Source of the DNA: a virus
Taxonomy: Duplodnaviria; Heunggongvirae; Uroviricota; Caudoviricetes
Virus record (IMG/VR): IMGVR_UViG_2721755676_000001
DNA length: 64,000 nucleotides
Reading direction: 5' to 3' (one strand)
The position numbers and the translations under genes were made by a program. The notes under the pieces were generated by a model. That model saw nothing but the letters and a program-made list of their open reading frames with translations, was not told the origin of the DNA and searched no databases. Shown here piece by piece: positions 26,708 to 28,754 of the stretch. Position 1 is the first letter of the stretch, and the number at the start of each line of letters is the position of its first letter.

Positions 26708-26938
26708 ATGTCATACCCGACTAATGTCGTTGCGCTCGTAGAGAGCGATTTTCTGGCCCAGGCTCGTGAAATGATGAAAGATCGTGAGCAGGCTTTCAAC
26801 TTGTACGAATGGGCAATTAAGTGCTTGCATCTTGGCGAGCATCGCGAACTTGTTGAACAGCTTTTAGGTGAGTTGATCAATGAGGTGTTTGCCTTGAATG
26901 TTCAACTACATGGTAGAGAAAATAATCAATCACAATGA
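26708..26938 (+). CDS. Hypothetical small protein (76 aa from MSYPTNVV)
   Basis: In-frame ATG inside track ORF 26684..26938. Confidence 0.4.
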   Translation: MSYPTNVVALVESDFLAQAREMMKDREQAFNLYEWAIKCLHLGEHRELVEQLLGELINEVFALNVQLHGRENNQSQ

Positions 26939-27520
26939 TAGATAAGTACAAACTATTCATAAAGTGAATTGTAAGTGCTAAGATCTGATAGTTTCCAGTC
27001 GTAGACTGGAGACTCGACCTGATGGGTGGGGGTAAGCGTCACTGGCGTCAGGTTTAAAAAAGCTCACTACCAGCGTAGAACTGGTGCCGTTTAGGAGTCG
27101 GGGAAGGGGGAACCAAAGTGAGCAGAGACAAGGGTCACTTTATGATTGTCGAGTCTGGGGTGTTTCGAGAGGTTGAATCCAGTACTCCCCTTCATAAAGT
27201 GTGGGAAGATCTCGGTTCTGGGGTGCTGTCATCCATAACTTCCCAAGTCTAAGCTGGCAGTAGACTTAGACCATAACTTTTCAGGTTATGAAACGACCAG
27301 GTTGGTGAGAGATTTTTATACTCACCTCCCTGGGAGAGTATTACCTGAAAAGACAACCTCTCACTTCGTTCGAGGTGAACTTCACTCACTTCGTTCGTTC
27401 AGTTCAGGTTTATAAAAACCTGTTCTGGGAAGTAATTTGTTTATTTTAATAATTATTAACACGCACGCGTGTGCGCACGCGCGAGGAAAAATCGGCGCGG
27501 CGCTTGATTCAGGAGTTTAT

Positions 27521-28111
27521 ATGACGACGAAGACACCAGCCCGATCGCAAGCAAAAACTCGCAAAAAAGCCAAAAACAAAAATTCCCCCCGCACCAATCC
27601 CACAACGCCTGTCGTAGAGTTCAATCCCCAGCTTAAAACCGTGAAAATCTTTAGTGATGGCTCTTGCCTTAAAAATCCGGGTGGCCCGGGCGGTTACGGT
27701 ATCGTTCTCCAGTATCGTGGTGAGGAACGCGAGTTCTCAGATGGTTTTCATAGCACCACCAATAACCGCATGGAGATGATGGGGGCACTTATCGGGCTGG
27801 AGCGTTTGAAATATCCATGCAACGTTATTTTGCACTCTGATAGCCAGTATCTGAAAAACGGCATGACACAGTGGATGAAATGGTGGAAACGCAATGGATG
27901 GATGACTTCTGACAAAAAACCGGTAAAGAATGTTGATCTGTGGAAGCGTCTGGATGAGGCCGCAAGTCGACATAATGTTCGCTGGAAGTGGGTTAAAGGT
28001 CACGCCGGGCATCGTGAAAATGAAATATGTGATCGACTCGCGAAGATCGCAGCTTTTTCAGCAGCAGATATGCCTCACAAGAAAGATATTGGTTTTGTTT
28101 ATAATAAATAG
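27521..28111 (+). CDS. rnhA: Ribonuclease HI
   Basis: Near-collinear with E. coli RNase HI: [66 protein letters not shown]; RBS AGGAG. Confidence 0.9.
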
Positions 28112-28259
28112 TAAGTAAGTGTTTACCTATCATTTTAAATCATGTATCTTATCGGCGTCAGGATGACAATGTGTCGGTAAGACACAGTTCCAGGATGGAA
28201 CGAGAAAGGCGGCTGGCAATCGCCAGCCGCAACTCTTTCTGACACTGGATGGAGTCCAC

Positions 28260-28754
28260 ATGGCACGTCAAACCTATTTCACTTCTGTAACTAAACGTCC
28301 TCGTTCTTTACGTCAAATTTTGGCCGAATTATTTAGCGGTCGTGTTATGTCACGCCTTGATGAACTAGAGACTACCGTTCGGTTGCTGAATGAACGTTTA
28401 GATAATCAAGCGTCAGTTGTTGCGAACGTGGGGGCGATTGTTGCCTCTGGTTCTTCACGCGAAGCGAAAAATGCACGGCCTTTAGTGAAGGAGAAAAACA
28501 ACAAGGACAGTTCGAATGGAAAATTTTCAAAGAAAGAGGCTGAAACCAATGGCCTACGTTCTCATTATAGTTTCACTGGCGACGGTAGCCGTTCCAGCCG
28601 GTCAGAGCCTTTTGATGCCGGATTCATCCATCACCACACCTTCGTCGACGACAATTACCACCACTCCAGTGGAGCGTCCTGTCACTCTGGATGGGATGGC
28701 GGTGGATGCGATACCTCAAGTTCATCCAGTTACTCAGGATCATGCTGTGACTAA
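28260..28754 (+). CDS. Hypothetical protein; C-terminal half doubtful (Ser/Cys/His-rich), alternative ORF 28549..28767 in another frame
   Basis: N-terminal 80 aa look protein-like; alternative frame encodes MAYVLIIVSLATVAVPAG with Thr/Ser-rich tail. Confidence 0.3.
   Translation: MARQTYFTSVTKRPRSLRQILAELFSGRVMSRLDELETTVRLLNERLDNQASVVANVGAIVASGSSREAKNARPLVKEKNNKDSSNGKFSKKEAETNGLRSHYSFTGDGSRSSRSEPFDAGFIHHHTFVDDNYHHSSGASCHSGWDGGGCDTSSSSSYSGSCCD

Follow-up and report, generated by a model that had tools for sequence, protein, structure and literature searches.

The region in front of rnhA in the analysed DNA is best explained as a stand-alone gene on the conserved backbone of SSU5/pHCM2-type phage-plasmids, and its product as a non-coding RNA of about 450 nt with a high degree of structure (probability roughly 0.55). 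The RNA gene has been unannotated until now, and it is part of this backbone in Enterobacteriaceae. The window, which is the whole 64,000-nt stretch analysed here, is itself an SSU5/pHCM2-type phage-plasmid. It is 98–99.5% identical to the Escherichia phages CMS-2020a, PhiR41_1, and Cyrano, and 82% identical to SSU5. A candidate structured non-coding RNA had been suggested in the initial annotation. This suggestion is borne out by conservation above the coding level, covariation, the lack of a conserved ORF, and an abundant transcript in published RNA-seq data. With a length of more than 400 nt, compensatory helices, no conserved ORF, and transcription, the RNA has the features of a large structured non-coding RNA. 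It probably acts in trans.

The gap that contains the RNA extends from 26939 to 27520 and is bounded by the stop codon of a small upstream ORF (26938) and the ATG of rnhA (27521). No ORF of at least 60 codons is found in it on either strand, and the longest one inside has 46 aa. The absence of such ORFs was correctly described before, but the gap has 582 nt and not about 450. Its description as G-rich applies to the 5′ half only (GC skew of +0.26 to +0.29 at 26975–27200), and parts of rnhA are skewed at least as much. The numerous short inverted repeats were confirmed, and most of them are helices of the conserved RNA fold. A direct repeat exists as well; it is the 13-nt CTCACTTCGTTCG (27360–27372 and 27385–27397), and the 15-mer quoted earlier was wrong. 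In the whole window, a group II intron at 5429–5515 is the sole Rfam match at the gathering threshold, and no tRNA or tmRNA was detected with ARAGORN. The small ORF upstream of the RNA encodes a 76-aa protein of PHROG 5343, which carries no assigned function. It has no Pfam match and no PDB fold match at an E value below 6, and its AlphaFold model consists of three helices (pLDDT 79). This protein was considered as an RNA partner in the manner of the helical protein Rop, and the Pfam, PHROG, and fold searches were uninformative.

The conserved core of the RNA, delimited by conservation, covariation, and the lack of a conserved ORF, lies at 26991–27436 on the + strand (about 446 nt). Its column identity among 63 distinct relatives is 93–97%, whereas that of the flanking coding sequences is 86–90%. 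The RNA alone is 94.6% identical to that of SSU5 and 90.7% identical to those of Klebsiella phages, compared with 81.7 and 78.3%, respectively, for the whole 1.6-kb region. The RNA is present in 686 PLSDB plasmids from Klebsiella, Escherichia, Enterobacter, Salmonella, Citrobacter, and Cronobacter. It is also present in 231 of 5,426 complete E. coli genomes (about 4%), in which the match site is unannotated. RefSeq leaves the RNA site blank, and two phage records place doubtful ORFs over it. A previously described RNA in SSU5/pHCM2 elements was not found in the literature searched. The sampled diversity comprises about seven lineages in two deep clades from a single bacterial family, the Enterobacteriaceae. 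Distant relatives were sought with two core-motif scans of viral contigs, a scan of 185,579 species genomes, and a metagenome scan anchored on the protein of the upstream 76-aa ORF. Together, these scans gave the same two clades and, in addition, copies in Kluyvera and Buttiauxella (the latter 5′-truncated). Several candidate relatives (L126, L235, L163, L164, L166–L169, and L171) were rejected as chance matches; the match in L126 falls within a 442-aa ORF and that in L235 within unrelated sequence. A 51.6-kb Cronobacter deletion derivative was looked at for origin function, and its PLSDB gene table is incomplete.

The RNA appears to start at about 26991 from its own extended −10 σ70 promoter, as judged from the sequence. 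This promoter is predicted at 26956–26984 on the + strand and is composed of a −35 element TTCATA (26956–26961), a 17-bp spacer with the extended −10 TG at 26976–26977, and a −10 element TAAGAT (26979–26984). TGnTAnnAT shows complete or at least 90% conservation amid variable neighbouring bases, and the nearly invariant promoter columns are G15, T16, G17, T19, A20, A23, and T24. The promoter was missed by a consensus scan because its score was 8/12 against a cut-off of 9/12. Transcription can be followed in the near-identical element Cyrano, in which an annotated 44-aa gene, CYRAN_81, falls inside the RNA (PMC9928086, Table 1 and S1 Table). According to the per-gene counts of that study, CYRAN_81 in LB reaches 12 times the Cyrano median, and its log2 fpkm is 6.8–10.35 over five conditions, against 3.1–5.8 for the upstream ORF and 2.6–5.0 for rnh (PMC9928086). 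By these per-gene counts, the RNA locus is 12–40 times above either neighbour during lysogeny, and its level climbs further in macrophages. On the RNA-seq check proposed in the initial annotation, the published per-gene counts show an abundant and independent transcript at the RNA site. No classical intrinsic terminator is present between the RNA and rnhA, and the first terminator-like site on the + strand lies past rnhA at 28209–28230. Therefore, the abundant species could be a processed and stable 5′ portion of a transcript that extends further.

The fold was evaluated on a structure-naive MAFFT alignment of 31 distinct copies. The RNA folds on the + strand into about 12 covariation-supported stem-loops, and this is the outcome of the structure and covariation check on relatives that had been recommended at the outset. 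Paired cells amount to 93.3%, compared with 34–50% when the partners were slid. Changes on both sides occur in 37 of the 108 pairs, compared with 6–11 in the slid controls, and none of 500 shuffles reached the observed pairing values. RNAalifold independently gave 107 pairs, of which 40 have compensatory changes. The + strand was assigned because G·U cells outnumber A·C cells (192 versus 43). Hairpin A and parts of P4, P5, and P8 are without any variation among the copies and hence fall outside the covariation test. Three sets of predicted pairings are mutually exclusive, namely the local and long forms of P7, a pseudoknot and hairpin A, and P12 and a small CCU/GGG hairpin. Two long-range pairings from single-sequence folding (27010–27018 with 27148–27156, and 27235–27245 with 27426–27436) were dropped because the JZ38 clade loses them and covarying helices compete with them. 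The initial annotation had named a conserved small protein gene, or a lack of conservation and structure signals, as evidence against its suggestion; no such gene was found, and both signals are present.

All of the following parts of the fold are on the + strand. The 5′-terminal hairpin P1 (26990–27014) begins 9–10 nt past the −10 element. It is a hairpin in every lineage with at least seven different stem sequences and a folding energy of −4 to −19 kcal/mol, and 8 of its 11 pairs show both-side changes. The P2 arm (27016–27054) consists of GACCUGA/UCAGGUU around GGUG/CACU and the invariant motif GAUGGGUGG. Five of its seven outer pairs changed on both sides, 97% of the cells are paired, and the same helix was obtained independently by RNAalifold. 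The P3 arm (27062–27123; GCUCACU/AGUGAGC) contains an inner hairpin at 27081–27101 and a conserved, G-rich internal loop, GGGGAAGGGGGAA, at 27100–27112. Both-side changes are found in three of its seven pairs, and the predicted inner hairpin has many G·U/G-C exchanges. P4 (27136–27201; CACUUUAUGA/UCAUAAAGUG) encloses P4a (27151–27158 with 27179–27187), the loop of which holds the invariant AGAGGUUG (27168–27175). For P4 and P4a, two independent clades (L160/L106 and the JZ38 group) show both-side changes. P5 (27202–27245; UGGGAAG/CUUCCCA) has an inner hairpin, P5a (GGGUG/CAUCC), and a conserved internal loop, AUCUCGGUUCUG; all cells of P5 and P5a are paired (100%), with both-side changes in 3/7 and 1/5 pairs, respectively. 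The P6 hairpin (27247–27271; GUCUAAG/CUUAGAC) displays a conserved loop, CUGGCAGUAGA; its cells are also 100% paired, and both-side changes, seen in several clades, affect five of seven pairs.

The P7–P9 domain (27272–27352) is formed by a long helix (27277–27289 with 27340–27352) and, within it, the inner helices CCAGG/CCUGG (27297–27301 with 27329–27333) and GGUGAG/CUCACC (27304–27309 with 27321–27326). In the inner helices, pairing reaches 98.5% and compensatory changes are present. For the long helix, comparison by eye with the JZ38 copy revealed that CAGG/CCUG is replaced by CUGG/CCAG with the pairing kept. A local P7 hairpin (27272–27277 with 27285–27290) excludes the long helix and is preferred by RNAalifold. 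The next segment (27352–27404) starts with an invariant block, ACAACCUCUCACUNCGUUCGAGG, and continues with the two adjacent hairpins A (27357–27360 with 27372–27375) and B (27376–27381 with 27399–27404), both of which display the same loop sequence, UCACUNCGUUC. In the JZ38 clade, hairpin B has both-side changes in three of its six pairs. CAACCUCU (27354–27361) is complementary to AGAGGUUG in the P4a loop, and the two may form a pseudoknot that excludes hairpin A. Neither 8-mer varies in 68 of 70 distinct copies, and each of the remaining two has an independent C-to-U change that retains a G·U pair. The last element is the P12 hairpin (27405–27422; CAGGUUU/AAACCUG), which together with the conserved 3′ tail UUCUGGGAAGUAA spans 27405–27435, where conservation stops. 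Three of seven P12 pairs changed on both sides; only 81% of its cells are paired, it is missing in the JZ38 clade, and the small CCU/GGG hairpin is predicted as its alternative.

The core is followed by an A+T-rich spacer (27436–27458), whose sequence and length differ among relatives, and by the perfectly alternating purine-pyrimidine tract ACACGCACGCGTGTGCGCACGCGCG (CA/CG/TG; 27459–27483). No other run of this kind in the 64-kb window is as long, the next one having 15 nt. Among 200 first-order Markov simulations, the mean length of the longest run was 16 nt, and no simulation exceeded 22. The alternating tract noticed in the initial annotation is real and non-random and has 25 nt. The term palindromic applies only approximately, since it consists of two overlapping 12-nt arms with 92% complementarity. 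As an uninterrupted alternating run rich in CG and CA/TG, the tract is predicted to be Z-DNA-prone by composition. It occupies the same position in all clades with a length of 6–29 nt, and it is a simple-sequence repeat of variable length downstream of the conserved RNA and not a part of it. The conserved RNA unit closes with AGG, a poly(A) run, and TCG (27484–27494). The poly(A) run has five residues in the window (A5) and ranges from A5 to A10 among otherwise near-identical E. coli copies. In the cargo variants, homology stops directly past TCG (...AAAATCG). By its sequence, the alternating tract together with poly(A) is hypervariable simple-sequence DNA that closes the RNA unit and is the left border of a cargo slot.

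The gene rnhA (27521–28111, + strand) encodes an RNase HI that carries about 40 additional N-terminal residues of basic character (Pfam RNase_H, E value of 9.8e-45, residues 40–178). In relatives, it is replaced by genes for TIR-NLR, HEC-08, an HNH restriction-like protein, lipoproteins, or LysR, or by an IS. In L170, L154, L201, and L155, the downstream gene lies on the opposite strand. The JZ38 plasmid has no cargo gene, and the conserved right-flank genes come straight after the RNA unit. The RNA was not found beside rnh homologues of other phages. Therefore, rnhA is an occupant of a swappable slot and a neighbour outside the RNA unit. The RNA is unlikely to be an rnh leader because the downstream gene is swappable, and the link to rnh drawn in the initial annotation is incidental, rnhA being one among several interchangeable genes at this position.

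The RNA was compared with known families. The Rfam 15 set includes ROOL, GOLLD, OLE, raiA, 6S, CsrB, C4, RNAI, Sok, group I and II introns, RNase P, tmRNA, and riboswitches, and the whole-window scan at the gathering threshold gave nothing at the RNA. A permissive scan of 26850–27600 with E values up to 10 gave sub-threshold chance matches, the best of which scored 21.5 bits against a gathering threshold of 56. The covariance-model search proposed for this region thus returned no matching family. The RNA resembles the orphan RNAs ROOL, GOLLD, OLE, and raiA in having several hundred nucleotides, many covarying helices, and no ORF. Like the orphan RNAs of phages and prophages, it is carried by a temperate mobile element, and its biochemical function is not deducible from sequence. 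Unlike these RNAs, it is limited to phage-plasmids of Enterobacteriaceae and is not beside tRNA genes as the ROOL/GOLLD type is. It is a string of stem-loops with possibly one pseudoknot, and the closing multi-helix junction of that type was not found in it. The 6S and CsrB/CsrC RNAs, which are stable, abundant, trans-acting, and built with repeated motifs, illustrate a possible working mode and not a family; a 6S-like central bubble, a series of GGA loops, and a covariance-model match are all lacking.

Four other explanations were weighed against a stand-alone RNA gene. The RNA could be a cis-acting leader or insulator of a lysogeny-active unit that reads into the cargo slot, and it would set the amount of transcription or translation arriving at the cargo through attenuation, processive antitermination, or mRNA stabilisation, with the abundant species being the terminated or processed leader. 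The orientation shared with rnhA, TIR-NLR, HEC-08, and HNH, the cargo start 110–400 nt after the unit, and the lack of an intrinsic terminator before rnhA are consistent with this. The high leader and low downstream counts resemble an attenuator in the OFF state, and the three sets of mutually exclusive pairings would provide alternative structures. However, the cargo differs or faces the opposite strand, so a constant gene association is missing and no regulated gene co-varies with the RNA. In JZ38, the next element is the conserved right flank with its own promoter-like site and terminator. A length of about 450 nt with about 12 conserved helices also far exceeds the needs of known attenuators, and we regard a leader as unlikely. 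That the region encodes a small protein or a hok-like type I toxin mRNA, its structure being mRNA folding, has very little probability. The 44-aa ORF annotated as CYRAN_81 in Cyrano (27118–27252) starts with GTG, and hok-type mRNAs are of a similar length (about 400 nt) and highly folded. However, the L084, L160, and JZ38 clades have this ORF interrupted or in another frame, no ORF is shared between clades in position or frame, and the starts are GTG or TTG. The 44-aa product is without a long hydrophobic stretch, unlike Hok-type toxins, and a conserved hydrophobic toxin ORF of about 50 aa, as in hok/sok systems, was not found. The substitutions in the helices are compensatory.

An origin element had also been suggested in the initial annotation. 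A replication primer or R-loop origin like that of ColE1 RNA II or T4 would require a persistent RNA–DNA hybrid of the G-rich transcript at the A+T-rich, Z-DNA-prone, and poly(A) region, which RNase H would cut for priming. The order of a promoter, a folded RNA of about 450 nt with G clusters, an A+T-rich spacer, the tract, AGG-poly(A), and rnhA fits this model. ColE1 RNA II is likewise a folded plasmid transcript (about 500 nt) that contains G-rich segments and has a U/A-rich stretch and an A run behind it, and an RNase H gene is adjacent in the window. The full genome also encodes UvsW, UvsY, a gp32-like SSB, RecA, primase, helicase, and Pol III alpha. On the other hand, the full genome encodes a RepA initiator 17 kb from the RNA, rnhA is exchangeable and missing in several lineages that keep the RNA, and no homology to ColE1 RNA I/II (RF00106) was found in Rfam. 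There is no antisense RNA I gene or promoter facing the 5′ end, and the sole − strand promoter-like site nearby (26997 to 26968) points away from the RNA. The tract (6–29 nt) and poly(A) (5–10 nt) vary freely, the RNA is abundant as a free species in lysogeny, and the cumulative GC skew is uninformative because it climbs nearly throughout the full genome with no extremum near the locus. An origin is accordingly judged highly improbable. Base pairing with an mRNA is another mode known from the immunity RNAs c4 of P1/P7, CB of N15, and CI of P4, which are processed to species of about 80 nt and have clear complementary targets nearby. The twin loops of the RNA would then silence a lytic or anti-repressor mRNA. 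The RNA shares with them a phage-plasmid carrier, expression in lysogeny, and two identical exposed loops comparable with the two target-recognition loops of c4, and SSU5 has the anti-repressor gene ant about 1 kb downstream. However, the E. coli versions lack ant, no Rfam C4 match was found, and known immunity RNAs have only about one sixth of the length of this RNA. Apart from its own antisense strand, GAACGAAGUGA has no complementary site with up to one mismatch in the 64-kb window. In the complete Cyrano genome, the longest outside complementarity is 12 nt, which is about the chance expectation. Such a regulator is therefore improbable.

Returning to the stand-alone RNA gene, we tentatively propose that the RNA works in trans, as a stable scaffold or decoy for a host or phage-plasmid protein that would be bound through invariant unpaired motifs. 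The proposal is drawn from the anatomy of the RNA, namely the repeated identical loops and the invariant unpaired motifs. Transcription would begin at about 26991 from the extended −10 σ70 promoter, and the first 25 nt would form a protective 5′ hairpin. The functional RNA may end near 27436, either because it is processed or because termination occurs in a way that is not recognisable as a classical terminator. Candidate protein-binding motifs are the twin UCACUNCGUUC loops, the GGGGAAGGGGGAA internal loop, and the AGAGGUUG loop, which may lock the pseudoknot. Such a scaffold or decoy might help to maintain the plasmid state or to manipulate the host.

The finding corrects the annotation, and it locates the left edge of the cargo slot, which in relatives is occupied by anti-phage defence genes. 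In clinical E. coli, Klebsiella, Enterobacter, and Salmonella, SSU5/pHCM2-type phage-plasmids are frequent, and resistance genes are present in some of them. Their backbone contains a conserved, abundant, and macrophage-induced RNA of about 450 nt that is annotated nowhere. Large structured RNAs without assigned function are rare in Enterobacteriaceae, where genetics is easy, and thus the RNA is directly testable with E. coli K-12 as the host of PhiR41_1 or LF82 as that of Cyrano. It is possible, at somewhat less than even odds, that it represents a new class of large structured RNA in the core genome of clinically widespread phage-plasmids and is an RNA machine or scaffold required by the element for stable carriage or host reprogramming. 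If this is true, a protein sponge, a ribozyme, or a higher-order RNA assembly would reside beside a slot for the exchange of defence genes.

The gap before rnhA encodes a conserved, folded and non-coding RNA, which accumulates separately and is made during lysogeny. Its core lies at about 26991-27436 on the + strand. A structured non-coding RNA had been put forward here as a candidate in the initial annotation, and this is now upheld by conservation, covariation, the lack of a conserved ORF and accumulation in RNA-seq. The gap extends from the stop of a small ORF (26938) to the ATG of rnhA (27521) and measures 582 nt rather than the roughly 450 bp first given. Its ORF-free character was verified, the longest ORF on either strand having 46 codons. 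The description of the region as G-rich holds for the 5′ half alone (GC skew around +0.27) and fails for the remainder. The region shares 98–99.5% identity with Escherichia phages CMS-2020a, PhiR41_1 and Cyrano, and 82% with Salmonella phage SSU5. Therefore, the window is assigned to an SSU5/pHCM2-type phage-plasmid. Genes in this part of the window run in the order thymidylate synthase, DHFR, Pol III epsilon-like exonuclease, Dam methylase, a 76-aa ORF (a member of PHROG 5343), the gap, rnhA and small ORFs; the identities of Dam and RNase HI were confirmed by Pfam. The RNase HI carries a Lys/Arg-rich N-terminal extension of ~40 aa ahead of the Pfam RNase_H domain (residues 40-178), and the stretch encoding it (27521-27640) is the least conserved part of the region, with 76% column identity. 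Elsewhere, a match to group II intron domain V/VI at 5429-5515 (Rfam RF00029, 64.9 bits, E 1.7e-10) indicates that the window carries a group II intron. Further stretches of at least 300 nt without an ORF of at least 70 codons are found at 7213-7791, 41365-41714 and 42502-42803.

Among 63 distinct relatives, column identity is 93–97% over about 27021-27420, 86–90% in the flanking coding sequence and 76% in the first 100 nt of rnhA. Restricted to the RNA interval, identity is 94.6% with SSU5 and about 90.7% with Klebsiella phages, compared with 81.7% and 78.3%, respectively, for the whole 1.6-kb region. By BLAST, 686 PLSDB plasmids carry the interval, with 310 from Klebsiella, 194 from Escherichia, 88 from Enterobacter, 49 from Salmonella, 24 from Citrobacter, 10 from Cronobacter and a few others. 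It is also carried by 231 of 5,426 complete E. coli genomes, almost always on plasmids of 105–115 kb, and RefSeq annotates nothing at the interval in these 231 genomes. A deep second clade, about 60–68% identical, comprises the plasmid of Cronobacter sp. JZ38 and related contigs. More distant relatives were sought by pattern scans of viral contigs, in one genome per bacterial species and by a protein-anchored scan of metagenomes. These scans added Kluyvera and a 5′-truncated Buttiauxella copy; they revealed no third clade, and the remaining matches were due to chance. The family appears confined to these SSU5/pHCM2-type phage-plasmids of Enterobacteriaceae, with a modest sampled diversity of about seven lineages in one bacterial family. 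In the Buttiauxella gaviniae copy (sequence L162, 4807-5316), the first ~125 nt, comprising the promoter, helices P1 and P2 and most of P3, are swapped for unrelated sequence, and it is probably a decayed remnant.

Single-sequence folding gave a z of –4.6 on both strands alike. Therefore, comparative evidence must decide. The helices were derived from the window and the divergent JZ38 copy, and pairs were counted in a MAFFT alignment (A3) of 31 distinct sequences that was never fitted to the structure. Over 108 pairs, 93.3% of cells hold standard pairs, against 34–50% in a slid control with the 3′ partner moved by 1–3 columns. Both sides have changed in 37 of the 108 pairs (6–11 in the slid controls), and in none of 500 column shuffles did the pairing, the number of compensatory pairs or the covariation score reach the observed value. 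The check for covariation among related elements suggested in the initial annotation therefore speaks for the fold. An independent RNAalifold run on the same alignment predicted 107 pairs, 40 with compensatory changes, in essentially identical helices. The compensatory changes are distributed among several lineages (the E. coli clade, the SSU5 clade, JZ38 and the relatives L125, L146, L084 and L160), so they are not one inherited event. The folded strand is the + strand, in the sense of the neighbouring genes, because G·U pairs (192) exceed A·C oppositions (43) and the other strand would give a lower pairing of 88.8%.

The fold is a row of stem-loops, P1 to P12, in which several predicted helices are invariant among copies and three pairs of mutually exclusive pairings are possible. 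The invariant unpaired motifs are GAUGGGUGG, UACCAGCG, GGGGAAGGGGGAA, UUGUCGA, AGAGGUUG, GAUCUNGNUUCUGGGGU, CUGGCAGUAGA, ACAACCUCUCACUNCGUUCGAGG and UUCUGGG. The direct repeat seen earlier is present as the 13-nt CTCACTTCGTTCG at 27360 and 27385, and corresponds to two neighbouring hairpins that show the same loop, UCACUNCGUUC. AGAGGUUG lies in the loop of P4a, the inner helix of P4, and is complementary to CAACCUCU (27354-27361). Of 70 distinct copies, 68 carry both sequences unaltered, and the other two show independent C-to-U changes, each retaining a G·U pair. This complementarity is suggestive of a pseudoknot, which we regard as a candidate.

In the alignment of relatives, an extended –10 pattern, TG-n-TA-nn-AT (26976-26984, + strand), is invariant or nearly so amid variable neighbours, and a TTnAnA motif lies 17 bp upstream on the same strand. 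The conservation pattern is as for an extended –10 promoter and points to a start at about 26991; judging from the sequence, the RNA would be transcribed from a promoter of its own. In every lineage a hairpin occurs 9–10 bases past the –10 element, with at least seven different stem sequences. This fits a 5′-terminal stem-loop that may protect the RNA. Conservation of the RNA stops at about 27436, and no classical intrinsic terminator was found from there to rnhA. No conserved small protein gene is present in the homologues, as no ORF within the RNA keeps its position and frame across clades. The 44-aa ORF at 27118-27252 is re-framed or broken in the JZ38 clade and in those of L084 and L160. 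Its annotation in Cyrano as CYRAN_81 (3020-3154 of sequence L172) is a probable mis-annotation. Another probable mis-annotation is a 5′ extension of ~57 codons in the RefSeq RNase H CDS of SSU5 (SSU5_090, 6739-7503 of the SSU5 record L002), which takes in the simple-sequence tracts and reaches back as far as the 3′ edge of the core.

The conserved unit consists, in order, of the promoter, the RNA, an A+T-rich spacer, an alternating purine-pyrimidine tract, AGG, poly(A) and TCG, and cargo variants lose homology immediately past TCG. The tract had been described as a 24-nt perfectly alternating palindrome. The alternation is real and spans 25 nt (27459-27483), and the palindrome is only rough. 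It is the longest such run in the window, the second longest being 15 nt, and 200 first-order Markov simulations of the window gave a mean longest run of 16 and a maximum of 22, never 25. The tract occupies the same position in all clades with a length of 6 to 29 nt, and the poly(A) run varies from 5 to 10. Both behave as hypermutable simple-sequence DNA. They are considered to belong to the 3′ boundary of the unit, outside the functional RNA fold. Candidate roles of the two are a hairpin aiding 3′-end formation of the RNA, a supercoil-sensitive or Z-DNA element, or a recombination-prone border. The poly(A) at 27487-27491 is A5 in the window, whereas E. coli copies that are otherwise near-identical have A5 to A10; the variation reflects either an assembly artefact or a homopolymer that is hypermutable and may be a phase-variation site.

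Expression can be read from Cyrano, the near-identical phage-plasmid of strain LF82, which is 96.9% identical over the RNA and in which CYRAN_81 marks the locus. CYRAN_81 is listed among the expressed genes of the resident phage-plasmid; in LB, it reaches 12 times the Cyrano median (PMC9928086, Table 1). The log2 fpkm values (PMC9928086, S1 Table) are 6.8–6.9 in LB overnight culture (BLB in the table header), 9.0–9.3 in B1, 6.9 in B6, 8.2–9.0 in MB1 and 10.3 in MB6, where we interpret B1 and B6 as cultured bacteria and MB1 and MB6 as bacteria inside macrophages, the digit giving the time of sampling (1 h or 6 h). Under the same five conditions the upstream ORF gave 3.1–5.8 and rnh 2.6–5.0 (PMC9928086, S1 Table). 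Therefore, the RNA locus stands 12 to about 40 times above either neighbour, in per-gene counts, not coverage, of one study whose library may not be strand-specific. The highest value of the element by far belongs to CYRAN_43, a "hypothetical protein" beside the integrase, at 723 times the Cyrano background during lysogeny (PMC9928086, Table 1); it lies at 40268-40822 on the minus strand of the Cyrano sequence L231, by coordinate offset apparently outside the window.

The RNA is always found together with Dam and the 76-aa ORF upstream, and the downstream gene changes among relatives. The variable slot corresponds to 27495-28111 of the window and is also seen in the relatives L142, L203, L202, L170, L154, L197, L201, L155 and L162. 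rnhA follows the RNA in most copies. The other occupants are a TIR-NLR defence protein (PADLOC E 8e-166), HEC-08 (E 5.5e-146), an HNH type IV restriction-like protein, lipoproteins, a LysR regulator and an IS, some of them on the opposite strand. The motif TCGCCCATCGTAATGTCTTCAATGTGCCA is common to the variants without rnh. On the JZ38 plasmid the conserved right-flank genes directly follow the RNA unit without a cargo gene, and no such RNA precedes the rnhA homologues of other phages, even those that are 80% identical. Since each occurs without the other, rnhA is the present occupant of a cargo slot and no partner of the RNA. The slot resembles a hotspot for defence/moron genes in SSU5-type phage-plasmids. 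Between it and a 164-aa gene at 28260 lies a second conserved small structured element (28125-28240), with three hairpins, compensatory changes between clades and no Rfam match. Its last hairpin (28209-28230) resembles a terminator, with a T run behind it, and the element may represent a small RNA or an attenuator at the right border of the slot.

The locus probably acts as RNA rather than as DNA, and five readings of the mode of action were weighed. The most likely, held tentatively at a probability of roughly 0.35, is a trans-acting scaffold or decoy, with a protein bound via the invariant loops. It is favoured because of the size of the RNA, its many conserved unpaired motifs, the twin identical loops and the independence from neighbours. 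A leader or insulator acting in cis on the cargo slot would suit the missing terminator after the RNA and the drop in read counts downstream; however, it is made doubtful by a cargo that varies and is sometimes encoded on the opposite strand. A base-pairing regulator like c4 of P1 is unlikely, as complementarity to potential targets stayed at chance level in both the window and the whole Cyrano genome. The geometry is attractive for an R-loop primer or origin like RNA II of ColE1, and the genome encodes UvsW, UvsY, a gp32-like protein and RecA. Nevertheless, rnhA is dispensable cargo, RepA is encoded, homology to RNA I/II is lacking and the tracts downstream vary freely, which leaves this reading quite improbable. 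That the transcript is the mRNA of a small protein or a hok-like mRNA is very improbable given the ORF comparison across clades.

The search against Rfam proposed in the initial annotation recognised no family at the locus (Rfam 15), and none of the papers searched describes an RNA there. In kind it is closest to ROOL and GOLLD, the large orphan structured RNAs of phages and prophages, but it belongs to none of the families of this type. It is rated as a new family of large structured RNA borne by a mobile element, and the hosts of this family are well studied and genetically tractable.
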